DNA of 64,000 bases from Nitrospirota bacterium (GCA_040758255.1 JBFLVX010000001.1:132-64131), one strand, 5' to 3'. Shown: positions 1-48,615, counted from the first letter of the stretch. Numbers and translations are program-made. The notes: generated by a model from the letters alone, not told the origin.

Positions 1-138
1 CATAATATTGACAAGCTTATAACTATAGCACAAGAGTTATGAAAAAAGATGAGCTAAGATTAAGAGAATATATATTTGTGTTAGTAGAATTTGAGACCCC
101 CAAAAAAGTCGGTTGGAGTTTTCTATATCTCCGTTAGG

Positions 139-321
139 TTATAACTCCCCGCAGTCCTTCCGCACTTGTCGGAACGACTCGTCCCGATATGCGGAAACCA
201 CTCCTTGATACCCGCAGATGGCGCAGAATTCATCAAGAATAACAGCTTTCCCCTTGCGACAGGCTCTCTTGTCCCGTAAGTATATGGCCTCAAGATACCC
301 CCTTTTGGATCGTGAATTCAT
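139..321 (-). CDS. small Cys-containing hypothetical protein (60 aa), possible zinc-ribbon/HNH-like fragment
   Basis: ORF with CxxxxG...CAICGY cysteine pairs; no confident family match; sits in an AT-rich edge region. Confidence 0.2.
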   Translation of the reverse strand: MNSRSKRGYLEAIYLRDKRACRKGKAVILDEFCAICGYQGVVSAYRDESFRQVRKDCGEL

Positions 322-476
322 AATGTTCTCCTTTTAACTGCATGTTTTTTCAGTAACATGCATTATGAGTCAACGATATGTTTTACTTCTACTTGCGGTA
401 ACATTTTTTATGAGGTAGTTTAGATGGCAATTCGTTGTACATTGCTTGATAGCTGATATCTCTTTATAATAAAACA

Positions 477-2063
477 ATGAAGAATATCCTCCGCCGCGCT
501 GCCCGCTCAATAACAGCGAAACTTATAGCCGCCGTAGGCTTGTTGATGATTGCGGGAAGCCTTATATTCTGGTACGCCATTCTGTACAAACAGGAAAAGG
601 ATATCATGTCAATAGCTGTAAAGTACGGCGTCTCTTTTATTGATTTTGTAAAAGAGAGCACACGCTACGGCATGCTCACCCGCCACAGATCAGATATTCA
701 GCAGACTCTTGAAGATATAGATCTGGCGGAAGGCGTTGAGAGGGTGCGTATCTTTGACCATACAGGAAAGATATTCTACTCTACCGATAGGCAGGATATA
801 GGCAATTCAGTGACAAAGACTTCCCTACCATGCAATGGGTGCCATTCAGACATTGAAAAATCATCTCAACTCCTCAAGGAGCCAAAGAAATGGGATAATT
901 ACAAAAAACCTGACGGGGTCACCGCCCTGAAACTCGTTGAGCCTATTTACAATGAGCCTGCCTGTTACACTGCCGACTGTCACGCGCACCGGGAAGGGCA
1001 GAAGATATTAGGCTTTGTAGAGGCTGACGCTTCGCTTGCTCTTCTTGACGAAGCCATGCTAAAACAGGAGTTAGCCGCAGCCGCATACGTGATCGTCTTC
1101 CTGCTGATGCTCTCCATAAGCATAGTTGTCATACTTTGGAAAATAGTCGCTAAGCCTGTCGGTGAGCTTTCTTACGGGATAAAGAAGGTATCCTCCGGAG
1201 ACCTTGATCATTCAGTTCCCGTAAAATCAAGAGATGAGATAGGATTGCTGGCGGCTTCGCTCAATTCCATGATAAAAGATCTGAAAGCTGCAAGGGATCA
1301 GAAGAATACATGGAGGCAGACACTTGAGGCAGAGGTCTCAAAAAAGGCTGAAGAGATACAGAAGACACATTGCGGCTTTTTGCAAACAGAAAAACTCGCA
1401 TCCCTCGGCAGGATGGCATCGGGGATAGCAAACGAGCTTAATATTCCCTTAAAGGAACTACTCGATTCCGCGCATTCATTAAAGAAGCGGCTCCCTTCCG
1501 GAAGCCCTGAGGCGGAAGACGTTGATGTAATAATTGAGCAGGCCGCGAGGGCTGAGAAGATAATAAGCAATTTTCATGACTTTACGAACGCAAAACCGTC
1601 CGAAAAAGGCAGTGTAGATATTTGCGCTCTGCTAAACAGGACAATATTCATCATAAAGAACCAGAAGAAGTTCCGTAATATCAGGATCAATGTTCTCACA
1701 GACGAGATACCTCTCTTTCCCTGCGGCGACCCCTCCCAGTTTCAACAGGTTTTTCTGAATATGCTTGTGAACGCTGCCGATGCCATGAATGAGACGGGTG
1801 AGATAACTGTTGAAATACGCAAAATAACGGAAGATGCGAAATCATATGTTGAAATAAATTTTACAGACACGGGTCCGGGGATAAAGGACGAGGATATGCC
1901 GAGATTATTTGAGCCGTTCTTCACAACCAAATCAACAGGGGAAAACACAGGGCTGGGGCTCTCTGTCAGTCACGGCATTGTCAAGCATCTTGGAGGATAT
2001 ATTAAGGTATTAAGCGAGATTGGCAAAGGCGCTACGTTTTCTGTTAGACTTCCGTTAACTTGA
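477..2063 (+). CDS. sensor histidine kinase: two TM helices flanking a periplasmic domain with a heme-c binding motif, then HAMP, HisKA and HATPase_c
   Basis: TM1 LIAAVGLLMIAGSLIFWYAILY and TM2 VIVFLLMLSISIVVILWKIV. Periplasmic segment contains CNGCH (canonical CXXCH) and CYTADCH (CX4CH variant). HAMP-like DEIGLLAASLNSMIKDL. H-box LASLGRMASGIANELNIPL. G-boxes DTGPGI and GLGLSVSHGIV. Confidence 0.85.
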   Translation: MKNILRRAARSITAKLIAAVGLLMIAGSLIFWYAILYKQEKDIMSIAVKYGVSFIDFVKESTRYGMLTRHRSDIQQTLEDIDLAEGVERVRIFDHTGKIFYSTDRQDIGNSVTKTSLPCNGCHSDIEKSSQLLKEPKKWDNYKKPDGVTALKLVEPIYNEPACYTADCHAHREGQKILGFVEADASLALLDEAMLKQELAAAAYVIVFLLMLSISIVVILWKIVAKPVGELSYGIKKVSSGDLDHSVPVKSRDEIGLLAASLNSMIKDLKAARDQKNTWRQTLEAEVSKKAEEIQKTHCGFLQTEKLASLGRMASGIANELNIPLKELLDSAHSLKKRLPSGSPEAEDVDVIIEQAARAEKIISNFHDFTNAKPSEKGSVDICALLNRTIFIIKNQKKFRNIRINVLTDEIPLFPCGDPSQFQQVFLNMLVNAADAMNETGEITVEIRKITEDAKSYVEINFTDTGPGIKDEDMPRLFEPFFTTKSTGENTGLGLSVSHGIVKHLGGYIKVLSEIGKGATFSVRLPLT

Positions 2064-2264: not shown

Positions 2265-2711
2265 ATGGATATAAACCGGACAATTGAAGGGAGTTTTCAG
2301 CTAATTGGAGGGGAGTTTACTAACGCCGGCGAATCATCAATGCAGCTTAAACAAAAGCTTACAGAGATTGAATTAGGCAGAGACATTATAAAGAAGGCTG
2401 CGATTGTGGCCTTTGAGGCAGAGATGAATGTAATAATTCATGCGGCTGCCGGGTGGCTGCGTTACTATATAACCAAAGATGAATTAAGGATCGTTATAGA
2501 GGATATGGGGCCGGGCATTGCAGATATTGAACTCGCGATGAAGGAGGGCTATTCCACCGCGCCCGAATGGGTAAAAAATATGGGGTGGGGAGCCGGTATG
2601 GGCATGGCAAACATGAAGAGGAATTGCGACGTAATGAGAGTTGATTCGGTTGTCGGAGAAGGAACAACTATTGATATTATTATAAATCTCACTAAAGGAG
2701 AAATTATATGA
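2265..2711 (+). CDS. histidine kinase-like ATPase (anti-sigma regulatory factor / GHKL fold), hydrogenase/NuoEFG-cluster associated type
   Basis: HATPase-like motifs EDMGPGI and VVGEGTTIDIII; small size of 148 aa; overlaps downstream DRTGG gene, so operon. Confidence 0.7.
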   Translation: MDINRTIEGSFQLIGGEFTNAGESSMQLKQKLTEIELGRDIIKKAAIVAFEAEMNVIIHAAAGWLRYYITKDELRIVIEDMGPGIADIELAMKEGYSTAPEWVKNMGWGAGMGMANMKRNCDVMRVDSVVGEGTTIDIIINLTKGEII

Positions 2712-3067
2712 AGCTCCAGGATCTGGCGGATAAATTATTTTTACATGCTGTGTCTTACGATAAAGGTCTCAGTAAAGATGTCTCCGGAGGTTACGTAAGC
2801 GACCTGCTCTCTGATGTGCTCGCAAATTGCGCAGAAGGCAGCGTCTGGATTACACTGCAGAAGCATACGAATATAGTGGCTGTTGCAAGCCTGAAGAACC
2901 TCGCAGGGATAATTATTGTCGGGGGAAGAGAGCTTGAAGAAGAGGTATTAAAGCAGGCCGAGGCTAAGGAAGTCACAATTATGACAACCCCTATGTCCGC
3001 CTTTGAAACAACAGGCATGATCTACCAGCTTCTGAATGAAAACAAAGGGTCTGAAGAAAGTTGCTGA
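2708..3067 (+). CDS. DRTGG domain protein
   Basis: IIIVGGRELEEEVLKQAEAKEVTIMTTPMSAFETTGMIYQL matches the DRTGG signature; 4-bp overlap with the upstream gene. Confidence 0.65.
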   Translation: MKLQDLADKLFLHAVSYDKGLSKDVSGGYVSDLLSDVLANCAEGSVWITLQKHTNIVAVASLKNLAGIIIVGGRELEEEVLKQAEAKEVTIMTTPMSAFETTGMIYQLLNENKGSEESC

Positions 3068-3804
3068 AAGAATTCAGGGCAGACCTGCACATTCACACAT
3101 GCCTCTCCCCATGCGCTGATCTTCATATGACCCCTTCAGCGATAGTGAAGAACGCCTCTGAAAACGGGCTTGATATCATAGCCATAACCGATCACAATTC
3201 AGCGGAGAACATTATTGGAACAAAGAAAGCCGCTGAAGGTGCAGGCTTAACAGTGCTTGCCGGTATGGAAGTCACCTCCTCAGAAGAGGTTCATATATTA
3301 GCGCTCTTCGATGACATAAAAGACGCTTTAAAACTGCAGGACATTGTATATAAACACCTCGCGTCAGACAGAGATTATGACGGCGGATTGGGCGAGCAGG
3401 TGGTGGTCAATGAAAAGGACGAGGTGATGGGTTTTAACAAGCATCTGCTTATAGGCGCAACATCTTTGACCACTCTATCTATTGTTAATATTATACATTC
3501 TCTTGGAGGGCTTTCCATCGCCTCTCATATTGACAGAGAAGGTTTCGGGATAATCTCCAAGCTTGGTTTTATACCGAAGGATTTGAACTTCGACGCTCTT
3601 GAAATATCCCCAAATACAGATAAAGAAAAAGCAGAAGGTTTATTCAGAGATTACAAATCCTTTCAATGGATCTCTTCCTCAGATGCGCATTATATTGAAG
3701 ATATAGGGAAAAGGAGAACAAGCTTCTTCATAAAAGAAGCAACATTAGCGGAAATGAGAGGAGCTTTAAGAAATACCGGCGGCAGAAGAGTTGAATGGGA
3801 ATAA
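3061..3804 (+). CDS. PHP-domain (polymerase/histidinol phosphatase-like) metal-dependent phosphoesterase
   Basis: N-terminal ADLHIHTCLSPCADLHMTPSAIVKNASENGLDIIAITDHNS with HxH and DH metal ligands typical of PHP domains. Confidence 0.75.
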   Translation: MLKEFRADLHIHTCLSPCADLHMTPSAIVKNASENGLDIIAITDHNSAENIIGTKKAAEGAGLTVLAGMEVTSSEEVHILALFDDIKDALKLQDIVYKHLASDRDYDGGLGEQVVVNEKDEVMGFNKHLLIGATSLTTLSIVNIIHSLGGLSIASHIDREGFGIISKLGFIPKDLNFDALEISPNTDKEKAEGLFRDYKSFQWISSSDAHYIEDIGKRRTSFFIKEATLAEMRGALRNTGGRRVEWE

Positions 3805-3948: not shown

Positions 3949-5556
3949 TTATCCGCCCTTCTTCCAGTAAGGGCTTGAGATATCTTCAAACACAGTAAGC
4001 GCTGCGACCGCTCCCTGCGAAACAGCGGTAACGATCTGCTTGACCCCTCCGGTGATATCCCCCGCTGCATATACAAGGGGCATGGATGTCCTCATGTGCC
4101 CGTCAACTTTCACATAACCTTCTTCGTCAAGTTCCAGCCCGATTTTCTTCGCTAAATCGTTATTGGGTTCATAACCTATTGCTATAAAAACGCCCTGTGC
4201 CGCCATATCCCTCTTATTCCCCGTTATTATGTCTTCAATCGTGACTTTTTCAACAACCGTTTTACCGTGGATTTCCTTCACAACACTGTTAAACAGAACA
4301 GGTATGTTCCTCTGAAACACACTCTGTTGAAGTCTCTCTTCAGCCCTGAAAGTATCTCTGCGGTGCACTAATGTCACATGCGCGCCGAGGCTGTCAAGAT
4401 AAAGGGCATCGGTCAAAGCGCTGTTCCCTCCGCCAACAACAATGACGTTCTTCCCGTCCTTAAAAAGGTATCCGTCACATGTAGCGCAATAGCTGACTCC
4501 CCTGCCCGCAAGGCTGGTCTCACCTGACGCATTGAGCGTCCTGCTGCCAGCGCCGGTTGCTATGATAATCGCCCTGGCATTGTATATTCCCCTTCCCGTA
4601 GCTACTTCAAAACCGTCTTTCTTTTTCTTTATCTCACTTACCCCGACTCCCTGAAGAAGGAGAGAGTATTCCAGTGTCTGTTTTACCATCATATCAACAA
4701 GCGTCCTGCCCGCGATCCTTGCAAAGCCGGGGTAATTTTCAACTACCGGGGTTATTGATATCTGCCCCCCGGCATTCGCGCTTTCAAACACTATGCTCTT
4801 AAGTCCGCTCCTCTCCGCGTACATGGCGGCTGTGAGTCCCGCGGGGCCTCCACCGATCACAACAATATCGTAATCCCTGAGATCCTGCCTTCCGGCGGGC
4901 ATGACATACTCTACGGGTTTTCCTTCAACTATGGACTCTATGAAATAATCCTCAGGGAGGAGCCCCGGCGCAATCAGTGTTTCACCGACAAAAGTTTTAG
5001 GAACGGACATAGCAGCATATTTTTCAGCAAGGTCCAAGTTCTCATAAATCTCAATAATCTCAACCGAAACCATATCTTTCTTCTCTATTACTGCCGATAC
5101 CGCATAGAGCACCTGCTGCGGACAGTAAGGACAGGTAGGGCTGACAAAGACGCGGACCTTCCTTTTTTCTGTAAGCCTCTCAAGCCGCTTTCTTGAATCA
5201 TCCGAAATAAAGTTCCTCCCCGTTGACGCCATTATTAAAGAGAGGACAAATGAACCGGCCTCTTCGCCTGCGGGAGCTCCGGTATAACGAATATTGTACT
5301 TATCAGGCGCTATAAGGATTGTAGGAGACCTTTCAATCCCGCGCTTCCTGGCGTGATCGTCCTTGAGCCTGTAAAAGTTCACCTTGATCTTGTCCGTAAG
5401 CTCGGGCATGACTTTCAGCAGGCTCACCGCAGCTTCATTGAACGGCTCATTCATACCCGCCTGAGTATAGACCTCGATCAGGACAGTATCTTTAAGCTGT
5501 TTAAACGCCTCACGCAGCGACCTCTTAATGTCTTCGTTGATAAGCTCTTTTTCCAT
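3949..5556 (-). CDS. AhpF-like NAD(P)H disulfide oxidoreductase: N-terminal thioredoxin/glutaredoxin-fold domain fused to a thioredoxin-reductase-like FAD/NAD(P) domain
   Basis: N-terminal CPYCP redox motif; FAD GxGxxG (IVVIGGGPAGLTAA); second dinucleotide fold VIVVGGGNSALTDA; redox-active CATCDG disulfide typical of TrxB/AhpF. Confidence 0.8.
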   Translation of the reverse strand: MEKELINEDIKRSLREAFKQLKDTVLIEVYTQAGMNEPFNEAAVSLLKVMPELTDKIKVNFYRLKDDHARKRGIERSPTILIAPDKYNIRYTGAPAGEEAGSFVLSLIMASTGRNFISDDSRKRLERLTEKRKVRVFVSPTCPYCPQQVLYAVSAVIEKKDMVSVEIIEIYENLDLAEKYAAMSVPKTFVGETLIAPGLLPEDYFIESIVEGKPVEYVMPAGRQDLRDYDIVVIGGGPAGLTAAMYAERSGLKSIVFESANAGGQISITPVVENYPGFARIAGRTLVDMMVKQTLEYSLLLQGVGVSEIKKKKDGFEVATGRGIYNARAIIIATGAGSRTLNASGETSLAGRGVSYCATCDGYLFKDGKNVIVVGGGNSALTDALYLDSLGAHVTLVHRRDTFRAEERLQQSVFQRNIPVLFNSVVKEIHGKTVVEKVTIEDIITGNKRDMAAQGVFIAIGYEPNNDLAKKIGLELDEEGYVKVDGHMRTSMPLVYAAGDITGGVKQIVTAVSQGAVAALTVFEDISSPYWKKGG

Positions 5557-5674: not shown

Positions 5675-5909
5675 GCGTAACATACAAGTTGCCTATTAAC
5701 TATTTGTTACGGTATCACCTCAAAGGCGTCAAGGTCTATTAAATTTATTTGAAATTTTGCAGTTAATAAAAAATAGTGTTATAAAAATAGCATAGCTCTA
5801 TATGTATTTTGTCAACAAATATTTACCAAAAAAATTAAAATAAAAGTCAACAGGGTTGCGTCTTGAATCGTGCGTGACTAATTATAAAAATTTGGACTGC
5901 ATTAAATTT

Positions 5910-6461
5910 ATGGAAGACCTGTCCCTTCACATCCTTGACATCGTAGAAAACTCGATAACCGCAGGAGCTGCAAATATACGGATAAAGATCAATGAAGATA
6001 CCGGAGAGAACCTTCTTCTTATAGAGATAAGCGATAATGGCAAAGGCATGGATGAGGAGATGCTTAAAAATGCCCTCGACCCTTTTCATACCACAAGGAC
6101 AACCCGCAACGTAGGGCTCGGCATCCCCTTTCTTGCGGATGCGGCAAGGGATACCGGCGGGGATATTGCCATAAAGTCTGTGAAGGGAGAAGGCACAACC
6201 ATTACCGCAACTTTCCGGCATGATCATATTGACAGAAAGCCTCTTGGAGATATTGGGAAGACCCTGATAGTAATTATCGCCTCCAACCCTGACATTGATA
6301 TTCTCTTTGAGTATAAAAAAAACAATTCTGAATATATGCTGGATACGGCAGAGATAAAGAAGGATCTGGACGGCGTCCCGATAAATACGCCGGGGGTAAT
6401 AAAGGCTATTGAAAATGATTTAAAAGAATGGTTTAATAGTACCAACCTTATGATAAAATAG
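5910..6461 (+). CDS. second histidine kinase-like ATPase (GHKL fold) of the cluster
   Basis: LHILDIVENSITAGA N-box-like, DNGKGMD, GLGIPF, VKGEGTTITATF G-boxes. The supplied ORF starts at a TTG at 5856; the ATG at 5910 is the more likely start. Confidence 0.65.
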   Translation: MEDLSLHILDIVENSITAGAANIRIKINEDTGENLLLIEISDNGKGMDEEMLKNALDPFHTTRTTRNVGLGIPFLADAARDTGGDIAIKSVKGEGTTITATFRHDHIDRKPLGDIGKTLIVIIASNPDIDILFEYKKNNSEYMLDTAEIKKDLDGVPINTPGVIKAIENDLKEWFNSTNLMIK

Positions 6462-7294: not shown

Positions 7295-7531
7295 TCTTGT
7301 CCTTTAGCATTAATTGATACCTTGAATTTAACCCGGATAATGCAGATATTGCTCAATAACTTGTTTAACTCGATGATTTTTTTATTTGATTATTATATTA
7401 TGCATATGGCGTTAATTAAAAATATGCGCTGTTATAAAGATTAAATTCGATTAAGGTATCGAAAAACAAGTTCTTTCCCAACATCTGCATTATCTTAAAT
7501 GCTTTGATTTGGGAATTATACTGGAAGAACT

Positions 7532-8401
7532 ATGGCGGATAACGGGAAGATACTCGTTGTAGATGATGAACCGATAGTATTAAGGAGCTGTGAGAGGATA
7601 CTGAAATCGGAAGGGTACAGTATCGCCCTCGCCGCAGGCGGGCAGGAGGCGATAAATATCCTTCAAAAGGACGATTACGATCTGGTGATCACTGACCTGA
7701 AGATGCCTGAAGTTGACGGCATTGACTTGATAAAATGGCTGAGAAACTCAAAGCCGGCAACCGGGGTAGTTGTCATAACCGGCCATCCCTCGCAGGAGAC
7801 CATTAAAGATGCGCTTAATTTAGGCATAATTGACTACCTGCCGAAACCCTTTACCCCTCCGGTGCTTATAGATGTCACTGCAAAGGCCATGAAGATTACA
7901 ATGGTCAGGGCCTTGCCGGAAAAGACTCCTGAAGAGGATGAAGTTGAATCTAAGACCGCTGATCTTGAGAAGATCATAGCTGCAAACCGTAACAGGCCCG
8001 GAAGCCTTATCCCTGTTTTGCAGAAGGCTCAGGAGTTGATAGGATATCTCCCGCCGTCCGTTCAGAGGCATATAGCAAAAGGCCTGAATATTCCGGTCAG
8101 CGAAGTGCACGGCGTTGTCTCTTTCTATTCATTCTTCACAATGAAACCAAAAGGCAGGCATAGCGTAAAGGTTTGCCTTGGAACAGCCTGCTACGTAAAG
8201 AGGGCTGAAGAGATAATCGAAAAATTAAAAGCTACATTAAATATAAATGTCGGCGAGGTTACAAAAGACAGGAGATTCTCTCTTGAGAGTGTCAGGTGTC
8301 TCGGTGCATGCGGGCTGGCGCCAGTGGTCGTGATTGATCATGATACGCATGCATCTGTTGACCCTGTAAAGACTCCGGAGATACTTAAAGAATATGATTA
8401 A
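7532..8401 (+). CDS. response-regulator receiver domain fused to a NuoE/HoxE-like thioredoxin-fold [2Fe-2S] subunit (HndA-like)
   Basis: REC: VVDDEPIV, DLVITDLKMP, LPKPF. C-terminus: CLGTACYVKRAEEI ... VRCLGACGLAPVV, the four-Cys pattern of the 24-kDa NuoE family. Confidence 0.8.
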   Translation: MADNGKILVVDDEPIVLRSCERILKSEGYSIALAAGGQEAINILQKDDYDLVITDLKMPEVDGIDLIKWLRNSKPATGVVVITGHPSQETIKDALNLGIIDYLPKPFTPPVLIDVTAKAMKITMVRALPEKTPEEDEVESKTADLEKIIAANRNRPGSLIPVLQKAQELIGYLPPSVQRHIAKGLNIPVSEVHGVVSFYSFFTMKPKGRHSVKVCLGTACYVKRAEEIIEKLKATLNINVGEVTKDRRFSLESVRCLGACGLAPVVVIDHDTHASVDPVKTPEILKEYD

Positions 8402-8428: not shown

Positions 8429-8818
8429 TTGACAATGGCAAGATTAAAGATAGAAGATCTGCAAAGAATCAAGGATGAGCATAAGGCAGCTTCCACATTA
8501 AGAGAGGGCGGCTTCAGGGTAAAGATCACAGTGCACATGGGCACATGCGGCCTCGCGGCAGGAGCAAGAAATATAATGAGCGCATTGCTGGATGAGATTG
8601 AAAAGAGCGGCGTCACCGATGTCATTGCAACAACCTCGGGCTGCGCAGGGCTCTGCAGCCGCGAACCGATGGCAACAATAGAGGTAATCAACCAGCCGCC
8701 GGTCAAGTATGGATCTTTAACAGAGGATAAGATACGCAGAATATTTAAAGAGCATATTATCGGCGGGAATATTATTGAGGAATATGCGCTTGTTATAGGG
8801 AGCGAAACAGCGTATTAA
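8429..8818 (+). CDS. small thioredoxin-like [2Fe-2S] ferredoxin (HndB-like)
   Basis: VHMGTCGLAAGA ... TSGCAGLCSREP cysteine arrangement of NuoE-like 2Fe-2S domains; 129 aa; positioned between NuoE-like and NuoF-like genes as in hnd/hyd operons. Confidence 0.7.
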   Translation: MTMARLKIEDLQRIKDEHKAASTLREGGFRVKITVHMGTCGLAAGARNIMSALLDEIEKSGVTDVIATTSGCAGLCSREPMATIEVINQPPVKYGSLTEDKIRRIFKEHIIGGNIIEEYALVIGSETAY

Positions 8819-10726: not shown

Positions 10727-13177
10727 ATGATAACGCTCACTATAAACGGTAAAAAGGTTGTTGTTACAGAAGGCACCACGATCCTTGAGGCAGCCCTGCA
10801 GAACGGGATCGAGATCCCAAACCTCTGCTATGACAAGCGCCTCTCACCTTACGGCGCGTGCCGCCTCTGTGTTGTTGAGGTCGAGGGGCAGAAGAAGCTG
10901 CTGGCAGCATGTTCAACGCCGGTAACAGAGGGGATGGAGGTTAAGACAGAGACGCCGAAACTCTTCAAGGCGAGACAGACCGTGCTTGAGCTTCTTCTTG
11001 TCCACCACCCTCTTGACTGCCCCGTATGCGATAAGGCAGGGGAATGCAAGCTTCAGGACCTTGCGTTCAAGTACTGTTCCACCAAGAGCCGCTTTAAGGG
11101 AGAGAAGAAGCATGAGCTTGTTGACACTGGCAGCCCGATTGTAGAGAGAAACCCGAACAGGTGCATACTCTGCGGCAAGTGCGTAAGGGTCTGCGGCGAA
11201 TTACAGGGGGTAGGAGCCATAAACCTCCTGGGACGCGGCTTCGCCTCAAAGATAAGCCCTGCATTTGAAGAGACTCTTGACTGCGAATTCTGCGGCCAGT
11301 GTATAGACGCGTGCCCTGTCGGCGCGCTTGGCAGCAAGCCTTATAAATACAGCTCAAGGGCCTGGTTCCTTGAAGCGCATGACAACATCTGCCCCTACTG
11401 CGGTGTCGGATGCACTGTAACATATGACATCAGGGAAGGGAAGATAATCAGGGCAAAGGGAATAGAAGGCAGGGGAATAAACGAGGGCAACTTATGCGTT
11501 AAGGGAAGGTTCGGTTTTGATTACATCTACTCGAAGAACCGCCTGAAGACCCCGCTGATAAAAGAAGGCGACGGTTTTAAGAGCGTATCTTGGGAAGAGG
11601 CGCTGAACCATATCGCCAGGAAACTCAAGGCGATCAAAGATGCGCATGGCGCTGACGCGATCGGAGCGATAGGCTCTCCAAGATGCACGGTTGAAGACAA
11701 CTTCATGCTGAGGAAGTTTATGAAAGATGTAATCGGAAGCGACAATATAGATTCTTCATCAAGGTTCGGATACGCGAAGATACAGCGTGCCGTTGAGATG
11801 GCGTTCGGGCTTGAATCCCTGCCTGTAGATTTTAACTCTCCAATTGGGAAAGAAGCGATTCTGATAATAGAGTCCGACATCACCTCAACCCATCCTGTCT
11901 GGGGATTAAATTTCCTGAAGGCACAACGCAAAGGTTCATTCCTTATTACAGCAGACACCCGCGAGACAAAACTCACGCGGCACAGCAGCCGATGGCTCAG
12001 GCTGAAGCCCGGAACCGGGGCTGCGCTTATTAACGGGATCATAAAGATAGCCCTTGATGAGGGGCTGTATGATAAAGAGAAGGCCTCACATATTCCGGGA
12101 CTCTCTTTTCTCTCTGACAGCGTAAAAGAATACACCTCGAAAAAGGTTTCAGATATCACCGGCATTGCAGAAGATGTTTTCGTCAATACTGCGAAGAGAT
12201 TTCTCACTGCAGGCTCAAGGCTTATTGCGCTTACAATAGGGGCTGCTGAAGATACAAAGGGGCTGAATACAGCTCTTGCCGCAGCCAACCTGCTCCTGCT
12301 TATAGGTGAAGGGCCTGCGAGCATTCAGATGCCCGCTGAATACTGCAATACCTTTGGTATGTGGCACAAAGGATTGAGGCAGGGAAGATCAGGCAGGGAT
12401 ATTATATCCATGCTTTACGGTGAGGATACGGTCAAAGCTTTATATATTATGGGAGAGAACCCCGCTGTCACATTCCCTGACGCAACAACTATTGATAAAA
12501 CCCTTCGCGGCCTCGACTTTCTTGTTGTGCAGGATATAATGCTTACAGAGACCGCCAAGCTGGCAGACGTGGTGCTTCCTGCCGCAAGCTGGGCGGAAAA
12601 AGAGGGGACATTTATCTGCGCTGAGGGCATTGAACAGAAGGTGCAGAAGATAAGCCAGACCGAAGGAGAGCCTGTGCCTGACTGGCAAATTTTGAGAAAC
12701 CTCTCAAGGGCTATGGGTTTTGAGGTCGGGGCAAAGAACATAACAGCTCTTCAGGATGAGATAAATGAGATAAAGACCGAAGAGAGAACCGCTGAGACGA
12801 TCTTCAACCCAGTTGAATATATCCCCGGAGAAGAGCCGGATGCCGATTACCCTCTTGTGATGATAACAGGCAACCTCATGCAGCATTCAGGGGCGTTATC
12901 AGTCATGTCCCGGAGCCTGAGCCATGTGCTTGCAGATGCGTTTCTTCAGATAAGTAACGCTGACGCTGAAAAATACAATGTCCGCGATGAAGGCTTTGTG
13001 AAGGTAACTTCAAGAAGAGGCTCTGTTATGGTAAAGGCAAGGCTCTCCGATGAAGTGCCTGAAGGCAGCGTCTTCCTTCCAATTCATTTCCCGCATGCAA
13101 AGATAAATACGCTTACGCGCTTGTCCTTGAACGGCGAAGCGCCGCTCAGCGCTGTAAAGATTGAAGCGGTGAAGTAA
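10727..13177 (+). CDS. NuoG-like Fe-S / molybdopterin-oxidoreductase-fold subunit; catalytic Cys/Sec-His of formate dehydrogenases not present
   Basis: N-terminal 2Fe-2S (CYDKRLSPYGACRLC), His-ligated cluster HHPLDCPVCDKAGECKLQ, CILCGKCVRVCGE and CEFCGQCIDACPVG, Mo-domain 4Fe-4S CPYCGVGCTV. At the position of FdhF ARVUHGPS it has SRFGYAKI. C-terminal molybdopterin_binding-like domain present. Confidence 0.85.
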   Translation: MITLTINGKKVVVTEGTTILEAALQNGIEIPNLCYDKRLSPYGACRLCVVEVEGQKKLLAACSTPVTEGMEVKTETPKLFKARQTVLELLLVHHPLDCPVCDKAGECKLQDLAFKYCSTKSRFKGEKKHELVDTGSPIVERNPNRCILCGKCVRVCGELQGVGAINLLGRGFASKISPAFEETLDCEFCGQCIDACPVGALGSKPYKYSSRAWFLEAHDNICPYCGVGCTVTYDIREGKIIRAKGIEGRGINEGNLCVKGRFGFDYIYSKNRLKTPLIKEGDGFKSVSWEEALNHIARKLKAIKDAHGADAIGAIGSPRCTVEDNFMLRKFMKDVIGSDNIDSSSRFGYAKIQRAVEMAFGLESLPVDFNSPIGKEAILIIESDITSTHPVWGLNFLKAQRKGSFLITADTRETKLTRHSSRWLRLKPGTGAALINGIIKIALDEGLYDKEKASHIPGLSFLSDSVKEYTSKKVSDITGIAEDVFVNTAKRFLTAGSRLIALTIGAAEDTKGLNTALAAANLLLLIGEGPASIQMPAEYCNTFGMWHKGLRQGRSGRDIISMLYGEDTVKALYIMGENPAVTFPDATTIDKTLRGLDFLVVQDIMLTETAKLADVVLPAASWAEKEGTFICAEGIEQKVQKISQTEGEPVPDWQILRNLSRAMGFEVGAKNITALQDEINEIKTEERTAETIFNPVEYIPGEEPDADYPLVMITGNLMQHSGALSVMSRSLSHVLADAFLQISNADAEKYNVRDEGFVKVTSRRGSVMVKARLSDEVPEGSVFLPIHFPHAKINTLTRLSLNGEAPLSAVKIEAVK

Positions 13178-37300: not shown

Positions 37301-39788
37301 CCTGAGAAAAGAAGAGCATGCCCCTTAGAAGATTCTCTGCCAGGAACTCTTCGCCGATCTTTTCAAGTATATCTGCACGCGCAAACTGCGCCCTGTCTTT
37401 CTCTCTTCCGTCAGAGCCATGCATTATGTTTGTCCATAGCTGAAGCGCGTCAACCAACTCGCCATTCTTTTCAGCCGTTTCCGCATTGGTAATAAGTCCG
37501 GCGATATCTGTCTGAGAAAGGATTGAACTCTTGGCCTCAGGTTTTATTGGAGGAGCTATTCCTGCAATCACTGTCTTCTCCATGTAATTTAGAAAACGGG
37601 TCAGAGTCAGGAGGTGATTGGAGAGCTCTATTTCAGATATCGCCTCTTTCTCAAGAAGGGGCAGCGGTAAAATTATCTTCTGGCCTGTGTAAATCCTGTC
37701 TATATCTTTAACTTCAGGATTAAATTCCTTGAAGATGCCAATATACTTCTTCATGATAATATCTTCCGGCAGCCTTAATTCTCTCTTTAGAATATTAATC
37801 AGCACCTCGTCTTTTTTAACAACGTATATATGCTGAGCATATCCTTCGGATCGCAGCGTCTCATGCAAGGATGCGGACGGTCCGTGAAGCAGGGATGCCT
37901 CAGAGACGCTGGCTAAAGATTTGATAAGGAGATTATAAGGATCATTCACCTTCTTTAAGAAGTCCAGGAACTCGGTTTCTGACAATTGATACGGCCTTGA
38001 AGAGCGGTACTGAAGCGCTGCTACGCTGCCGGCAAGAGAATTCGATGACCATAATTTAACCTCCTTGACATCCTGTGGAAGAGGTATCTCGGCGAACGCA
38101 GCCTTTATCAATCGGCCGACAGGCTCTCTTGCGCTGAAGGCTCCGCTCAGGGTTGTATCGGTCAAAGAAAGGACATCTCTCGCTTTAATTATCTTAAGCG
38201 CATTCTCTGCTGTATTTGCCATATACCGGCTTTTCGTGAGGCCTTCCTCTTTTGTGATGAGCATCTTAACAGGCTGCATATCATCAAGCTGTACAATAAT
38301 CTCCTGCCCGTCAATCGTTGTCTCCGCATCAACGATCACCCTGAGAAACGAAGGAGCAAACCGTTGAGGAAGGCTGTATCTTTGAATAAGCGGCTCGCTT
38401 TCAGTCCCTGAAGGAATAGGGATAAAAAGAGAGCGTGAAAGAGTCTTCAGCCCGTCATCAAGGTGCTGCTTTAAAACGAGCGCCTCATCAGGCTGCTGCG
38501 GCTCATTTAGCGCAGGAGTCATAAACCAGCAAAACTCCTGCGGCTCCCTGCTTAATTTATTTGAAGGCATGAGGTCGCGGTAAAATGTATGAGAAAGAAA
38601 TATCTCCTCCGCCTCTTTCTTCACCTCAGGATGATCAGGACGCTCAATGCCTTTCTGATCCATAAGCATGACAGCGGCAATGCCGCCCTCGCGCCTGCTG
38701 TTGTCCCGCCAGAGAAGTGCCGCGCTCTTTTTTGAGAGCGGCTCTTGCGCTCTCGCGGCATCCTGAAGCTCTTCATCGTTTATATCCCATGCAGATTTTC
38801 TAAGCATAGAGGGGGAACCTTCTTCCCTTGCCTCTTTTGCCGATACATCGGGCTCGTTTGCTCCTGCAAAGAGGTAATCAGGCGACTCCTGTTTTAAGAG
38901 CCTGATATACAGCGGTGCAGTTGTCTCCATCTCAAATGTATGCTCGCCCTCCGGTATCTCTATGTAAGCTGTCTCCTCACGACCGACCGCCTCGGGAAAT
39001 CCGTTCACAAAAGTTGTTGCGATCTCAGGCTTTGTCTCAAATTCAAGGGTCTGGAACGGGCGGTCATCAATCTTTAGATAGATATTGTATGACTGCGCCC
39101 TCCTGCTCTCGGGAGAGGGATAAGCGATGCGGCTTTCAATCGCCACCCTCTGAGCCTCTTTTGTGCTGAATGATACAGGCTCATGGGGTTTGATAAGCTT
39201 AAAGTTCTTCTCAACAGATCTTCCGCTGCGGTGAATGCGGGCGAACTTTCCGGGCAGGCTTATCATCCTGCGGTATGGGGCTATCTCATCCTGCGTCTCA
39301 TGGCGCGAGATAAAAAAGGCTATTTTTATGCCCTCGTCTTTATCAGGCTTACGGCTTACGCGCACGAGCGAAGGCTCCCTGTTTAAAGGAGAGAATATTA
39401 TTGATTTTAAGTCCGCAGAGAATTGATAAGGCAGAAATGAATAGGCTCCGGAGCCGTTTGAGACTGCAAGTTCAATGTCGTCAATAGAGAATTCGCATTC
39501 AGGATTATAAATACGCGCTGTCTCGCCGGAAGGAACCCTGAAGGTTACAAACTCTCCGGGCTTAAGCTCAGCCATATGAAGACCAGCATCGTAATTATAA
39601 GAAAGCTTCTTGCCGCTTACCCATTGCGGCGGCCCCTCTATATTATCCCAGCGCAAAGGCAGGTCATACTGCTTAAGAAGCCTTAACTGAAGATCGTCAA
39701 GCTTGGCGATGCTCCCTAAGGGAACCAGTATCAGGCAAAGAATCGTTAAGCAGAAAATCGCGGATTTCAGTTTTCCGTGTCTATTCAA
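34362..39788 (-). CDS. giant (1808 aa) secreted protein with signal peptide, LysM-like segment, TPR-like helical repeats and a beta-strand-rich C-terminal region ending in Tyr (possible outer-membrane export scaffold)
   Basis: Signal MNRHGKLKSAIFCLTILCLILVPLGSIA; LysM-like YVVKKDEVLINILKRELRLPEDIIMKKYIGIFKEFNPEVKDIDRIYTGQKIILPL; alternating-hydrophobic C-terminal 400 aa; 20-nt overlap with the PgsB-like gene downstream. Confidence 0.55.
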   Translation of the reverse strand: MNRHGKLKSAIFCLTILCLILVPLGSIAKLDDLQLRLLKQYDLPLRWDNIEGPPQWVSGKKLSYNYDAGLHMAELKPGEFVTFRVPSGETARIYNPECEFSIDDIELAVSNGSGAYSFLPYQFSADLKSIIFSPLNREPSLVRVSRKPDKDEGIKIAFFISRHETQDEIAPYRRMISLPGKFARIHRSGRSVEKNFKLIKPHEPVSFSTKEAQRVAIESRIAYPSPESRRAQSYNIYLKIDDRPFQTLEFETKPEIATTFVNGFPEAVGREETAYIEIPEGEHTFEMETTAPLYIRLLKQESPDYLFAGANEPDVSAKEAREEGSPSMLRKSAWDINDEELQDAARAQEPLSKKSAALLWRDNSRREGGIAAVMLMDQKGIERPDHPEVKKEAEEIFLSHTFYRDLMPSNKLSREPQEFCWFMTPALNEPQQPDEALVLKQHLDDGLKTLSRSLFIPIPSGTESEPLIQRYSLPQRFAPSFLRVIVDAETTIDGQEIIVQLDDMQPVKMLITKEEGLTKSRYMANTAENALKIIKARDVLSLTDTTLSGAFSAREPVGRLIKAAFAEIPLPQDVKEVKLWSSNSLAGSVAALQYRSSRPYQLSETEFLDFLKKVNDPYNLLIKSLASVSEASLLHGPSASLHETLRSEGYAQHIYVVKKDEVLINILKRELRLPEDIIMKKYIGIFKEFNPEVKDIDRIYTGQKIILPLPLLEKEAISEIELSNHLLTLTRFLNYMEKTVIAGIAPPIKPEAKSSILSQTDIAGLITNAETAEKNGELVDALQLWTNIMHGSDGREKDRAQFARADILEKIGEEFLAENLLRGMLFFSQEEQTREEALIKLTDFYRKRSDSEGLLSLFAAAAIRQPDYKKFVALSELLTENSEYEMALALGLLLPEPEQPLQAMIKSAHKAGWWKVFETLVEKIKETEEGHYWRGLKLEKDGDYTNAIYHLRRAGAKGMERASAIEKAVSIRSDLTGNSSDLTEWERWQAQHPQPFIWEEAPYIVTDYAGAANLYNKERDMYSRAFISQKDRPVKLTLMGPVSIRIEARPLHTDKSAEPLDGWLEIRGQGSLKVLPISNNVPSQNLVISGSEGMTPGIKAVAEYNVGAGLHHIEVSGGDMPLLIQTYIKSPEIRIGVLPPITPDTLAALTNGKIVGESECPVNEADATPALIDNDPANEVLKQMITLLWIAEKRPEQRSHALAKAEELSLKHPYAHGTRPLLNRIFRGTTLMPYRNIQSSAGVRMIEEKGWDPFSPGLRIRKALLSPVSPDEHVLYGYDSEIIYMKNLQSKEIQVTATIEDVGYLPLLPMTGYFQLDSERVDNINLAEGRQKTVLLMKIPAGEHFLRIGIKEPVPNQFLRMHIAEVKKGKEISVWDRPVELQYYIATEEEPVVMEIEGPSVLQIEELSNGKIYEGYRKIEEGWQTVKIPARDGQKETLYRFYRRGVKDEPVTPVRKYIAESEPKPEPLISPASPKVSAYLKLKDDYPLGGQEDGTWTLSGEFVERRNLQEDSNFQDGLEEFIELKATYRSFDDLRRTLFRTDMLGRIREFGGPTLGLKGSLDWRPINSSLDFQFGGSLYLQYPDKFLSGQREWSVLLNAKAAKRIELGTKTFHVPSLAVFQRYLSMESYGSYIPEKVDQDIFTPYKFGHKRGLILTDTLNYRPWLDTNLYLGASVVSNEDMDIFNPDNISLRAGWRQLIGAFQVNAEYRRNHYLSDDDRNNSSDRERVELEVLWEKWSKSERRLELGLDLIHELDTGVNSGMIFLRWHMGNGRGLRDFNYGEIDFLDIRERRVPSERNNTIEDAEERY

Positions 39789-41544: not shown

Positions 41545-42435
41545 TTAATTCTCCGCGCCCTCTATACATCCCCGAAAACTTGTCCTGACCTTTTTATCAT
41601 CCTTTAAGATCATCCTCATCGGCTTGCTCAATTCAATATGAATAAAGCCGTAATATCCCATCTTCCGCAAAGCAATGCCTGTTGTATTGGTGCTGCCTCC
41701 AAGTTCCTTTATCTCAATGGGATAAAGGCTTGACATGCCTGAGACATTATTTCCAAGACACTTGTCTATCTGCTCTGCCAGACTGCCCGGAATTTTACTG
41801 CCGGAGCTTACAATTATATCCGTCTCCAAGCCTCTTTTACTTCTGCGCTCCTCCTTTACAAAACCGTGCAGTTGAATTATATTCCCCAACGGATAAGCAT
41901 GCGCAAAGGCGCGGGCATAGGCAGTGAAATAACTCTCCTTCAAATGCGCAAGGTCGGAATTTCCAACCTTGTCGTCATCGTCAGAATTACGCGAAACAGT
42001 ATTCCATGCGGCAGACACAATCTTGCCTTCAAGCAAAAGATCGAGCGTTATCTCTCCTGTGTAAAGGTCATCAACGCTGTGAGGTGACTGGATCGCTAAC
42101 TTTTTATAATTCGAGAGTCTGAATATGTAAAAACCACGTCCTCTCTTCTTCCCCTCTTTCTCCTGAACGAGTATGAACTCCTCTCCTCCGTCTTTAATCC
42201 TGACAACCTTAAAATTGAGCTTATCCCATTCTCTTTGCACATCATCCGTAAGCCTGCCCTTGAAAAGGTATCCAAAGAGTTCCTCGGCTTTTCTAAGCTC
42301 CGTTGCTGAGGGTTGATTATAAGAGCCGCCTCTGCTCTCATTCAGGAAACGCTCTATTGCAGTTTCCGCATGAAGGGCAGAAGCATTCAGAAATATAAAG
42401 AGGAGGACCAGAAGCCTAATAAATAATGGTGTCAT
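41545..42435 (-). CDS. secreted hypothetical protein; tentative resemblance to the gamma-PGA hydrolase (PghP/PF05908-like) zinc-peptidase fold
   Basis: Signal peptide MTPLFIRLLVLLFIFLNASALHA; RGFYIFRLSNYKKLAIQSPHSVDDLYTGEI resembles the PghP N-terminal DYRI...APHGGGIEPGTSE segment; QLHGF resembles ISIHG; from memory only. Confidence 0.45.
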   Translation of the reverse strand: MTPLFIRLLVLLFIFLNASALHAETAIERFLNESRGGSYNQPSATELRKAEELFGYLFKGRLTDDVQREWDKLNFKVVRIKDGGEEFILVQEKEGKKRGRGFYIFRLSNYKKLAIQSPHSVDDLYTGEITLDLLLEGKIVSAAWNTVSRNSDDDDKVGNSDLAHLKESYFTAYARAFAHAYPLGNIIQLHGFVKEERRSKRGLETDIIVSSGSKIPGSLAEQIDKCLGNNVSGMSSLYPIEIKELGGSTNTTGIALRKMGYYGFIHIELSKPMRMILKDDKKVRTSFRGCIEGAEN

Positions 42436-44881
42436 CAGTCAATCCTCTCTCTTTGTAAAATTTTCTCTCTTCAAAAAGCCCCGGCAAGACCCTGCTCATG
42501 GAGAGATAGCCTCCTGTCCCGGACTCAAGGGCAAACCGGATGTGATAATCTCCGGGAGGCAGGTCGCTTCCGAGCCGGACAAAGAACAACTGTCCGCTTT
42601 CAAGGTAATCATTGTATGTATTGAGCACCGCCGACTGTTCCCTGATATCCGGCTTTATGCTGAACCTCTGCCTTGAGAAGGTCCAGCTCTCAAAAGGCTC
42701 AAGCAGTACAGCCCCAGCCGTATCAACGCTTGTCAGGATAGTATTTCTCTCCATATTCTTTGAAGGGCTGTAGAAGCGCACGGACAGGAGTTCATCTGAA
42801 GAGGTCTGCTTCTTATATATAAAGTCCAGCCCTTTCTTATCAAACCTGTTTACGAACCTCTTGAGAAAGACACGCTCGCCTCCCTCGATATTATTAAGAT
42901 AAAATTCCGCCTTCCCCGGGGATTCTACTCTTATATCATGCCTGCCGAATTTTACCGGGGGCAGTTGGATCTCTCCCCTTAAACCGGCTATACGGGTCTC
43001 ATAATACAGTTTGTTATCAAGAAAAAATTTCACGGAGACCGGCTCGGACGACTTTCGTATGTAAATAAGCGTTGGAGATATTTTGGCAAGACCGGCTATA
43101 TGGACAAAGTCCACGGATATATTATGATTGAGAGAGAGGAGCGAATAATAGCCCTCTCTATTTCTTCTGCCGGAATCCGGCGCTGCTTCCGTTGCTGTTA
43201 ATATGTAGCGGGACGGCCTTTTGCCTTCAGGATGAAAATCCTCCCATAGGTACCGGCCTGCCGCAAGGTCTTCGCTATCCTCAGCAGGGCGCGGCTGAGC
43301 GGCTATAAGCAGCGAGCGTCCGCCTGATGCCAGTCCTTTGTAATTTGCAGGACGCACGGCAAACCATCCCGGCTGCTTCTCTTCCTGAGCGGCTGAGGCA
43401 TAGTAGTCTTCAGGCACTCTCACTTCCCTGGTCATGCCATCGGGCCTTGTATAAGCCGCTATCATAATCTCTGAGCCGGATGAAAAGCGTATGGAGTCTA
43501 TGTTGTGAGAGATATAAAAATGGCTGACGGCAGGCTCGGAAATATCCATACCGCCGGGATTACCGGCCATCCAGTCGTAAAGAGAGAGCGTTTCTGGTAA
43601 TGGGATTGAACCTGATCTCACAATGCCGCCGTCTTTATTTATAAGCTGGTAATCCGCATATCTTAAATTCTCCGGTGTCCCGCCTTCCTGCTTTGGAATC
43701 TGATAACGAAATACAGCCCTGAGCGGAGTCGGCCTGTCGCCTGTATGGTGAATCTTGAACTCTACAGGCTGCCCTTCCCTCATTATAAATGACCTCGTAT
43801 AAATGGGAACCGGCGTGATCTCAATCTCTTCATCGCCGTTTATAAGAAAGGCTCTTACCGTTATATTATCTGAAGGGCTGACCTCTATCATCCCGCCTTT
43901 GAAAAGCTCTTCAAAACTCGCATTGCCGTCCTCCCATGAGACCGTATAATCCATACGCATGCCTATGCCCCTGCCGTACCATCTAAGGTTTATATCCTGC
44001 GGGCTCCTGCCTGACATGTTGAGAAATTCAAGCCGTATCTTACCCCCTTCTTCAGGGACCGGGATAATGCCCCGATGCCCTTCCTTTATGTACAATCCTA
44101 CGGGTTGGAGATCGAAGTCTGCCGCTTCGCCCTCAGACTCCTGCAATACATAGAGCTTCCTGCTCTGATAATCTTTGCCGTCAGCGCCTAACGGGCCGAG
44201 GGGTATCCATGTCCTCTGTATGAGGTTCCGTTTCTCCTCGTCAGCCAGTAATTCATGCGGGTAGACATTACCTTTGGTAAGCCTCGTCTTCTGTTTGTCG
44301 CTTAAGCGTCTCCATAGAAAGCCAGGCTGTTCTTTTTCATGTTCAAGGTAAATATAGAGCCTCAGCCCGACATCAGATACAGATTCGTCCTTAGAGAGAA
44401 GGCGGAACCTTATGAATTTCCCCTTCTCCATACCTGAGAAATCAATCCTCATGCTTCGTGAATCAAACGGCTCAAGGTCAGAGTCTATATAAAAAGAGTT
44501 TGTAAAAATATCCCCTTCCTCATCTTTGAAGGTTGTCATTTTGGCGCGGTGATGATAAATACGGTCTGAGAGTATATTCTCATTTCTGTCTAACACCTGA
44601 AACTGATACGCATAATGCCTCTCATCGTCCGGCTTTGCGTCATAAGAAGAGGGCATATTCGCATTTGTGACCACCCTTGCCTGACTCCCTATCAGCGGGA
44701 TCGGAAAGGAGGTCCACTTCTTGTCATCAAGAATGTAGGAGATGCTGACTATGGCGCGGTCCATCCTCTTCTGGTACAGCCTGTCTTTGGTCGTAAGCGC
44801 CTGGAACAGGGGTATGCCGAACTTGAAAACAATAAAGCCTGCAAGCAGGGTTATAATTGTCCCTTTAATTATGTATCTCAA
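42416..44881 (-). CDS. large (821 aa) N-terminally membrane-anchored hypothetical protein, co-transcribed with the PgsC-like fusion
   Basis: Single N-terminal TM (IITLLAGFIVFKFGIPLF), no recognised motif; 17-bp and 20-bp overlaps with neighbouring genes indicate an operon. Confidence 0.5.
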   Translation of the reverse strand: MRYIIKGTIITLLAGFIVFKFGIPLFQALTTKDRLYQKRMDRAIVSISYILDDKKWTSFPIPLIGSQARVVTNANMPSSYDAKPDDERHYAYQFQVLDRNENILSDRIYHHRAKMTTFKDEEGDIFTNSFYIDSDLEPFDSRSMRIDFSGMEKGKFIRFRLLSKDESVSDVGLRLYIYLEHEKEQPGFLWRRLSDKQKTRLTKGNVYPHELLADEEKRNLIQRTWIPLGPLGADGKDYQSRKLYVLQESEGEAADFDLQPVGLYIKEGHRGIIPVPEEGGKIRLEFLNMSGRSPQDINLRWYGRGIGMRMDYTVSWEDGNASFEELFKGGMIEVSPSDNITVRAFLINGDEEIEITPVPIYTRSFIMREGQPVEFKIHHTGDRPTPLRAVFRYQIPKQEGGTPENLRYADYQLINKDGGIVRSGSIPLPETLSLYDWMAGNPGGMDISEPAVSHFYISHNIDSIRFSSGSEIMIAAYTRPDGMTREVRVPEDYYASAAQEEKQPGWFAVRPANYKGLASGGRSLLIAAQPRPAEDSEDLAAGRYLWEDFHPEGKRPSRYILTATEAAPDSGRRNREGYYSLLSLNHNISVDFVHIAGLAKISPTLIYIRKSSEPVSVKFFLDNKLYYETRIAGLRGEIQLPPVKFGRHDIRVESPGKAEFYLNNIEGGERVFLKRFVNRFDKKGLDFIYKKQTSSDELLSVRFYSPSKNMERNTILTSVDTAGAVLLEPFESWTFSRQRFSIKPDIREQSAVLNTYNDYLESGQLFFVRLGSDLPPGDYHIRFALESGTGGYLSMSRVLPGLFEERKFYKERGLTDDTIIY

Positions 44882-48509: not shown

Positions 48510-48615
48510 TACTAATGCTCCTCATATTCATGATTATATCCAATGTTACGGCTCTCAACAATTTAAATAAATGTCGTATTATAGCCTTTAAAATAAAAAA
48601 ATGTATATATAAAAA

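Follow-up and report, generated by a model that had tools for sequence, protein, structure and literature searches.

Bfu/HydABC-type enzymes set the balance of NADH, ferredoxin and H2 (or another substrate) in anaerobes, and their mechanism is debated. In the definition of the BfuABC family, BfuB carries the NuoF FMN, SLBB, NuoF 4Fe-4S and ferredoxin-type 4Fe-4S domains, BfuC carries a NuoE-like domain, and BfuA carries at least 2Fe-2S and 4Fe-4S ferredoxin-type domains (PMC9304861). In the same paper the mobile cluster domain of BfuC is termed "the gate or switch", set between a mid-potential and a low-potential branch (PMC9304861). Is there any case in which this subunit is joined to a signalling domain? 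Here we describe such a gene in a 64,000-nucleotide stretch of DNA from a Nitrospirota bacterium (GCA_040758255.1 JBFLVX010000001.1:132-64131), which is called the window below. The gene encodes a CheY-like receiver (REC) domain followed by a NuoE/HydC-type thioredoxin-like [2Fe-2S] domain, and is named REC-NuoE or REC-BfuC in this text.

Response regulators with enzymatic output include CheB (REC-methylesterase), PleD and WspR (REC-GGDEF), and RpfG (REC-HD-GYP). The fused protein resembles them in having a complete receiver at the N-terminus, a flexible linker and an output that does not bind DNA. It differs from all of these in that the output is not a self-contained enzyme. It is one subunit, for electron transfer, of an Fe-S flavoenzyme with several subunits, and control would thus act on electron flow or on complex assembly. 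No description of a receiver-NuoE/HydC/HoxE fusion was found in the open full-text literature, and an earlier mention in subscription journals, for example in response-regulator censuses, is possible. The paper on the Bfu family mentions neither receivers nor kinases (PMC9304861), and no post-translational control of Bfu/HydABC-type enzymes was found in the literature searched. What is new here is a Bfu/NuoEFG-type enzyme with a built-in two-component receiver, apparently never studied.

The receiver-NuoE fusion and its spread

Both domains of the fused protein score far above the Pfam cut-offs. Response_reg (PF00072; E 4.4e-32, 111 bits against a cut-off of 30.2) covers profile positions 1-108 of 111, and 2Fe-2S_thioredx (PF01257; E 9.3e-50, 168.7 bits against 24.8) covers positions 2-144 of 145, that is, the full NuoE profile with its N-terminal helices included. 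The phosphorylation quintet of the receiver is complete (D11, D12, D55, T83 and K105) and is accompanied by Y102 and P106; the phospho-acceptor Asp55 is encoded by GAC at 7694..7696. The cluster cysteines of the NuoE domain are C215, C220, C256 and C260, spaced as C-x4-C-x35-C-x3-C, with codons at 8174, 8189, 8297 and 8309. An earlier sequence-only reading of this gene had claimed a receiver with an intact Asp pocket and KP motif and a complete NuoE/HoxE-type four-Cys domain, and both claims are borne out. It had also described an acidic linker of about 40 residues. The acidity stands and the length does not, as 31 residues (115-145) separate the Pfam borders, and the non-domain part comprises about 25 (121-145) with 7 acidic and 4 basic residues. 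In the AlphaFold2 single-chain model (mean predicted local distance difference test score, pLDDT, 78.8; predicted template modelling score, pTM, 0.56) the beta-alpha receiver fold extends over residues 6-127, with pLDDT of about 90 in the first 80 residues. The NuoE helices begin at about residue 133, and low confidence (pLDDT below 50) is confined to residues 127-135. The linker is acidic and, with the predicted fold borders taken into account, roughly 10-30 residues long.

Is the fusion real? A search was made against 5.8 billion proteins, and the best 120 matches were listed and aligned. Every one of the 120 contains both Pfam domains. They are 62-98% identical to the query and 282-315 residues long, except one fragment of 220 residues, and they come from independent NCBI, JGI, ENA and Logan assemblies. 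The named ones belong to Nitrospirota/Thermodesulfovibrionia, under automatic database names such as "NAD(P)H-dependent oxidoreductase subunit E" and "NuoE/CheY-like". Since all the listed homologs have both domains at similar length, the fusion is genuine and under selection. The sequence-only reading had put forward a frameshift artefact, with REC and NuoE as two separate genes, as the case that would overturn it. Unfused NuoE genes do occur in other lineages, for example in Nitrospirae GWC2_56_14 (L009 among the loci compared below), but an assembly or frameshift artefact is refuted by the homolog architecture and its probability is negligible. The reading frame is open throughout the linker region, and the two-domain form recurs outside this clade, as described below. 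In L009 itself, where the tblastn search used no REC-bearing queries, a HATPase_c match starts at 5449 and the unfused NuoE at 6029, with little room for a REC gene between them.

The alignment of the 120 homologs also shows which positions are kept. D11, D12, D55, Y102, K105, P106 and the four cysteines are invariant in all of them, and T83 is present in 116. Conservation is lowest in the linker, and many surface positions also differ among the sequences. Constancy of these residues amid a variable linker and surface is the pattern expected for retained phosphotransfer chemistry, and this chemistry is under purifying selection in the window's clade.

How widespread is the architecture? The search for REC+NuoE fusions that the sequence-only reading had proposed was run as a profile-free scan of 1.84 billion cluster representatives for full-length matches to both domains. 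It recovered the fusion in at least 13 clusters at 50% identity, from several phyla, of which 10 were confirmed by Pfam. Genome contigs with NuoE motifs were scanned as well, and these are examples of the fusion, not a census. The fused proteins include two clades of more than 100 clusters each, the second of which (Zixibacteria/KSB1 type) counts more than 110 clusters at 90% identity. Thus the architecture, earlier called unusual, is so only in a relative sense, and it is apparently uncharacterised. The partners differ among lineages. A metagenome-assembled genome of Desulfobacterota (L007) has a REC-NuoE cluster whose A subunit is of the Cys-His type and which also encodes a GAF kinase and an NtrC regulator. 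In those of Zixibacteria (L008) and of KSB1 and related bacteria (L090, L091) the partners are a short HoxU-like A subunit and HdrA/FlpD/HdrB-like genes. The four NuoE cysteines are invariant in both fused clades and in the 13 distant clusters. The NuoE domain of the window is 52-61% identical to unfused NuoE genes; compared with the 13 other fused clusters, it is 38-49% identical to ten and 57-63% to three. Because it is closer to unfused NuoE than to most fused clusters, these values suggest that the fusion arose more than once, and recurrent fusion would in turn suggest a selective value.

Two side observations concern these other carriers. The proteins P0121 (578 residues) and P0123 (501 residues) contain two receiver domains and a NuoE-type sequence. 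They could be variants of REC-NuoE with a tandem or additional fusion, or else products of gene calling that joined the two adjacent REC genes. At 5093..8828 of L090 (candidate division KSB1), a 421-residue protein with [FeFe]-hydrogenase large-subunit and Fe-S domains lies between HATPase_c_2 and DRTGG genes, and may be a sensory hydrogenase. Its gene is upstream of a REC-NuoE gene (292 residues, of the clade with mostly degenerate pockets) and of Hdr-like genes.

Partner subunits and comparison with solved enzymes

The fused gene is the sole NuoE-type gene within the window, and genes for candidate partner subunits follow it on the same strand (Table 1). The small ferredoxin likely starts at ATG 8435, which gives 127 residues as in its homologs (129 from 8429). 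A 127-residue homolog comes after the fused gene in relatives, and in L003 it is joined to NuoF. The HydB-like gene lies 490 nucleotides 3' of the fused gene and occupies the same place in all relatives examined. Its product has an N-terminal 2Fe-2S domain, an FMN/NADH site, the NuoF 4Fe-4S domain and a C-terminal 2x[4Fe-4S] domain; PF01512, PF10589 and PF00037/Fer4 exceed their cut-offs, and SLBB is weak (22.7 bits against 27). It matches the B subunit of 7T2R over its full length (7T2R_B; E 1e-257, residues 3-596), and other full-length matches are 7Q4V_B, 8A6T_B, StnB 8OH5_B, NfnB 9N5U_B and 7P5H_B.

Table 1. Coordinates of the fused gene, its domains and the neighbouring genes in the window
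Feature	Position	Strand	Evidence and remarks
Membrane sensor kinase homolog	477..2063	+	HAMP, HATPase_c (Pfam); two heme-c-type motifs
Anti-sigma-like HATPase_c_2 protein	2265..2711	+	Pfam
DRTGG protein	2708..3067	+	Pfam
PHP phosphoesterase	3061..3804	+	Pfam
HATPase_c-only protein without DHp domain	5856..6461	+	PF02518, E 5.6e-16; likely start at internal ATG 5913
Second response regulator, REC + GcvH-like, 255 residues	6527..7294	+	PF00072, E 1.5e-25; weak GCV_H
REC-NuoE (REC-BfuC) gene, 289 residues	7532..8401	+	ATG start; open reading frame and two Pfam domains
Receiver (REC) domain, residues 7-114	7550..7873	+	PF00072
Linker, residues 115-145 between Pfam borders	7874..7966	+	Acidic, poorly conserved
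NuoE/HydC-type thioredoxin-like [2Fe-2S] domain, residues 146-288	7967..8395	+	PF01257
Small thioredoxin-like [2Fe-2S] ferredoxin	8429..8818	+	Weak PF01257 and NF041612 matches
HydB/BfuB-type flavoprotein, 610 residues	8891..10723	+	Pfam; matches to solved B subunits
NuoG-like A subunit, 816 residues	10727..13177	+	Molybdopterin-type domain; TIGR01973

Among solved structures, the NuoE domain is closest to C subunits of bifurcating hydrogenases (7T2R_C, E 1.5e-41; 8A6T_C and 7Q4V_C, 2e-39). The comparison set consisted of NiFe-HydABCSL (7T2R), the enzymes of Thermoanaerobacter kivui and Acetobacterium woodii (8A6T, 7Q4V) and that of Thermotoga maritima (7P5H), whose C chains align with residues 145-288 over the NuoE fold at E 1e-41 to 3e-30. 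The fused protein shares with these HydC/BfuC proteins the same four cysteines, an adjacent HydB-type gene and the presence of a small extra ferredoxin. The C subunits of the solved enzymes, however, are 156-189 residues long and have no receiver, whereas the window protein has 289 residues with one. Since the 610-residue protein resembles solved B subunits end to end and the NuoE domain resembles the matching C subunits, the cluster belongs, as far as its sequences tell, to the BfuABC family as defined. The fused protein is very probably the C subunit of a Bfu (HydABC-like) enzyme. As the window has no other NuoE-type gene, it is assigned as the structural E/C component that goes with the neighbouring NuoF/NuoG-like genes.

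The fused protein also belongs to the same Pfam family as NuoE of complex I (Nqo2, NDUFV2) and cyanobacterial HoxE, and has the same cluster motif. In the NCBIfam ranking the HoxE model NF005747 comes first, followed by FdsG and NuoE models, but the scores stay under the equivalog cut-offs (HoxE, 169.2 against 224; NuoE NF005722, 135 against 141; TIGR01958, 126.5 against 142.4). The F-type partner in the window is extended at both termini by the additional Fe-S domains of bifurcating enzymes, and canonical NuoE and HoxE have no N-terminal REC. The sequence-only reading had spoken of a NuoEFG-like module. It was right in that E-, F- and G-type partners are present, but this is not a plain NuoEFG, as the F component is a full-length HydB/BfuB and the G-like one is without its Cys-His pair.

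This last point concerns the A subunit. Its Pfam domains include Fer2_4, NADH-G_4Fe-4S_3 and Fer4_Nqo3, and it retains the molybdopterin-type domains and the 4Fe-4S motif. It passes the NuoG model TIGR01973 (474.5 against a cut-off of 470) and not the formate dehydrogenase alpha model TIGR01591 (447 against 666). The trio of E-, F- and G-like subunits is the same as FdsG/FdsB/FdsA of Rhodobacter capsulatus (6TG9) and Cupriavidus necator (6VW7), and the closest solved matches of the 816-residue protein are 9WXB_B (E 2e-127) and 6TG9_A (E 2e-123). Unlike FdsA, the window protein and its Nitrospirota relatives have other residues in place of the Mo-ligand Cys and the catalytic His, whereas the L007 cluster keeps Cys-His. 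In the window, "RFGYA" is aligned to "RVCHS" of FdsA 6TG9_A, with Gly348-Tyr349 encoded at 11768..11773. The pair is absent from all six Nitrospirota A subunits compared (GY in five, GF in L085), and the L007 homolog has "RLCHA". Formate dehydrogenase was therefore rejected as the catalytic partner for the window's clade, because the Cys-His pair is lost. There is a difference from solved HydABC enzymes too: their A subunits carry or wire to a hydrogenase site, whereas that of the window is NuoG-like and has no hydrogenase genes adjacent.

Phosphorylation as a possible control of the enzyme

What could phosphorylate the receiver? The sequence-only reading had named an upstream heme-containing histidine kinase. 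The membrane kinase homolog near the left end of the window has in its predicted periplasmic loop a CxxCH motif (residues 119-123) and a Cx4CH motif (residues 163-169). Each of the 121 aligned kinase sequences, the window's included, has these Cys and His residues; at the motif level this is consistent with covalently bound heme c. The kinase homolog is syntenic with the cluster in 7 relatives (L001, L003, L005, L006, L086, L087, L089). So the heme motifs and the association stand, but the phospho-accepting His does not. The H-box reads GIANELN in the window against GVAHELN in relatives, with Asn319 encoded by AAC at 1431..1433. A non-His residue (Asn, Lys, Gln or Glu) occupies this position in 13 of the 121 sequences, among them the window's and its five closest relatives, so Asn319 cannot be put down to a sequencing error. 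These sequences look like a recurrent lineage of "kinases" without the His, in which the heme-c-type motifs are retained. In genomes with a His-less kinase, such as L089, REC-NuoE still has its full phosphorylation site, and in most relatives kinases with an intact H-box His co-cluster with the fused gene. Because the H-box His is replaced by Asn, transfer from the upstream kinase to the receiver is doubtful in the window's organism. Elsewhere in the window, a single-domain receiver of 123 residues (48138..48509, minus strand), 32% identical to the REC domain of the fused protein, is paired with an 896-residue membrane protein with a C-terminal HATPase_c (48616..51306, minus strand). This kinase-like/REC pair (48138..51306) is a possible alternative phosphodonor system in the genome.

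How might phosphorylation act on such an enzyme? We consider it fairly likely that the fused protein is a response regulator whose output is a subunit of the Bfu-type enzyme, with phosphorylation of Asp55 altering the activity post-translationally. For phospho-regulation through D55 as such, our judgement lies between an even balance and a slight leaning in its favour, and confidence in any specific gating step is low. In the proposed mechanism, the enzyme is a soluble flavin/iron-sulfur oxidoreductase of the HydABC-like Bfu kind, and its C subunit, bearing one [2Fe-2S] cluster, would have acquired a phosphorylation-competent N-terminal receiver. The other subunits would be the small ferredoxin, the HydB-type NADH/FMN/ferredoxin subunit and a NuoG-like wiring subunit without a molybdenum active site. 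Phospho-Asp55 would restrain or free the mobile domain that carries the cluster of the C subunit; published Bfu models give this domain the part of a gate that separates the NADH/mid-potential branch from the ferredoxin/low-potential branch. The receiver seems well placed to restrain this movement because it is tethered there by a short linker. Another conceivable step is that REC-REC dimerisation shifts the oligomeric state. The donor in most relatives would probably be the syntenic periplasmic two-heme-motif kinase, which would tie the extracytoplasmic redox state to the cytoplasmic NADH/ferredoxin balance. In the window's organism, where the local kinase has no His, another kinase or a small-molecule phosphodonor would be needed. 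In relatives, REC-NuoE shares its cluster with a kinase, additional REC proteins and a regulator of the NtrC type. If the mechanism is true, it would be evidence of energy-coupling redox enzymes wired directly into two-component signalling. What is more, a phospho-switch on the gate subunit would offer a handle by which BeF3- or mutants of D55 could trap the conformations that the bifurcation cycle passes through. All carriers of the fusion encountered are uncultured, so that such work needs heterologous expression.

Several points weigh against phospho-gating of a bifurcating enzyme. Phosphorylation and its effect on activity are predictions, and the neighbouring kinase of the window and of its five closest relatives is missing the phospho-accepting His. 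The AlphaFold2 single chain shows no confident contact between the REC and NuoE domains (pTM 0.56). The A subunit has no Cys-His pair, so the third substrate is not readable from the genes, and the bifurcating activity of the cluster is assumed from homology only. The acid pocket is degenerate in the second fused clade (P0186-type, n=114): 78 of the 114 sequences have Glu at position 11 and only 18 have Asp at position 12, D55 is retained in 97, and Pro rarely follows K105. The receivers of P0129 and P0233 are degenerate too. Many members of the second clade are probably pseudo-receivers, and judged from them the REC fold can serve without phosphorylation.

Then could the receiver of the window also be a structural module or pseudo-receiver, for assembly, dimerisation or partner docking of the C subunit, and never be phosphorylated? 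The degenerate pockets just described and the His-less local kinase speak for it, as does the commonness of pseudo-receivers among bacteria (PMC12632262). On the other side stand the residues of the window's own clade, where D11, D12, D55, Y102, K105 and P106 are invariant down to 62% identity and T83 is nearly so, and the kinases with intact His that co-cluster in most relatives. A purely structural receiver is unlikely in our view, though with an appreciable chance of being right. One may ask instead whether the protein belongs to an enzyme at all. It might be a free-standing signalling protein, in which the [2Fe-2S] cluster senses redox and the receiver is a phosphate sink or relay in a multi-REC pathway. 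Several other REC proteins in the cluster (REC-GcvH-like, single REC, NtrC-type) would suggest a branched pathway, and the NuoE and HoxE equivalog models are below their cut-offs. But there is no second NuoE-type gene in the window or in the relatives' clusters to take the place of the subunit, and the HydB-type partner is always one or two genes downstream. Besides, every solved homolog listed has its B subunit deposited together with the C subunit, and the NuoE domain fills its profile with the N-terminal helices, which in complex I pack on the F subunit. This makes a free-standing sensor improbable.

The third possibility leaves the subunit in an enzyme and changes the enzyme: the trio would be a regulated alternative NADH/ferredoxin-input head ("Nuo-Bfu") for a neighbouring complex I membrane arm, with the receiver controlling docking. 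The cluster is divergent from an adjoining nuoABCD operon in L001, L003 and L086. A second NuoE/NuoF-type pair lies upstream on the opposite strand in L005 and L006, and the A subunit, which scores above the NuoG cut-off, has no catalytic site itself. For Nitrospirae and Planctomycetes, a class termed Nuo-Bfu has been put forward (PMC9304861). However, the nuo operons beside the cluster in L003 and L086 have their own NuoE, NuoF and NuoG, and the neighbours of the cluster in the window, L085, L087 and L089 are not nuo genes but sat-aprBA or others. We regard this docking head as very improbable.

Gene order and accompanying genes

For comparison of neighbourhoods, 89 loci were fetched. The order REC-NuoE, ferredoxin, HydB-like, NuoG-like is identical in 8 Thermodesulfovibrionia loci (L001, L003, L005, L006, L085, L086, L087, L089). 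The genes upstream are variable in these loci and include a REC-GcvH-like protein, a single REC, an NtrC-type sigma-54 regulator and a membrane kinase homolog of about 530 residues, all four of which stand in one string in L087. The REC-GcvH-like protein of the window has no lipoyl lysine, as the lipoyl-Lys column of GcvH 2KA7 is opposite Ala/Gly in an alignment judged by eye. Genes for homologs of this protein, 65-72% identical, immediately precede REC-NuoE in L003, L005 and L006, and in L085, L086, L087 and L089 the same place is taken by a REC gene of 253-256 residues. A sigma-54 promoter would be expected if an NtrC-type regulator acted on the fused gene. The candidate was rejected, as there are no matches in the intergenic region 7295..7531 and window-wide matches are below chance; a weak sigma-70-like site is present at 7314..7341.

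The kinase end of the cluster is divergent from complex I (nuoABCD...) operon genes in L001, L003, L005, L006 and L086, and from the sulfate-activation genes adk-sat-aprBA in L088 and L089. At the left edge of the window, six-frame translation of 1..480 gave no nuoA upstream of the kinase of the kind found in relatives. In L088 the kinase/HATPase_c_2/DRTGG/PHP block is present without REC-NuoE genes in the 10 kb fetched downstream.

Is this signalling neighbourhood specific to the fused gene? The trio of HATPase_c_2, DRTGG and PHP genes accompanies NuoE-NuoF clusters, with or without the fusion, at more than 30 loci that span many phyla, and HATPase_c-only homologs of 172-191 residues adjoin NuoE genes, again fused or unfused, in 40 of the fetched loci. 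Taken as a quartet, each of the four genes occurs in 35-40 of the 89 loci. The quartet is complete in about 30, most of them with unfused NuoE-ferredoxin-NuoF clusters, in Syntrophales, Clostridia, Bacteroidales, Atribacterota, Bipolaricaulota and others (for example L009, L011, L012, L016, L020, L022, L034, L040 and L056). No description of the DRTGG/PHP/kinase gene set with hydrogenases was found in the open literature. This distribution points to a general, undescribed regulatory layer around HydABC-type enzymes. A broader scenario can be drawn, which as a whole is tentative and rather doubtful. In it, the receiver in the mobile [2Fe-2S] gate subunit would gate a bifurcating Bfu enzyme directly, so that a periplasmic heme sensor or other kinase could re-route NADH/ferredoxin electrons within seconds without new expression. 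The device would have been recruited independently in several anaerobic phyla, and would be part of a wider kinase/phosphatase layer (HATPase_c_2, DRTGG, PHP, HATPase_c) that accompanies HydABC-type enzymes generally.

Some other genes of the window may be noted. Very large open reading frames with little or no Pfam signal at E <= 1e-6 lie on the minus strand at 30188..39788 and 42416..44881; those of 1808 and 821 residues are without family, and one of 1397 residues has a HEAT-repeat match only. A 535-residue protein encoded at 3949..5556 (minus strand) has a protein-disulfide-oxidoreductase-like N-terminus and a thioredoxin-reductase/AhpF-like flavoprotein part. It is absent from this place in the relatives examined, and in the window it sits between the kinase block and the REC-NuoE block.

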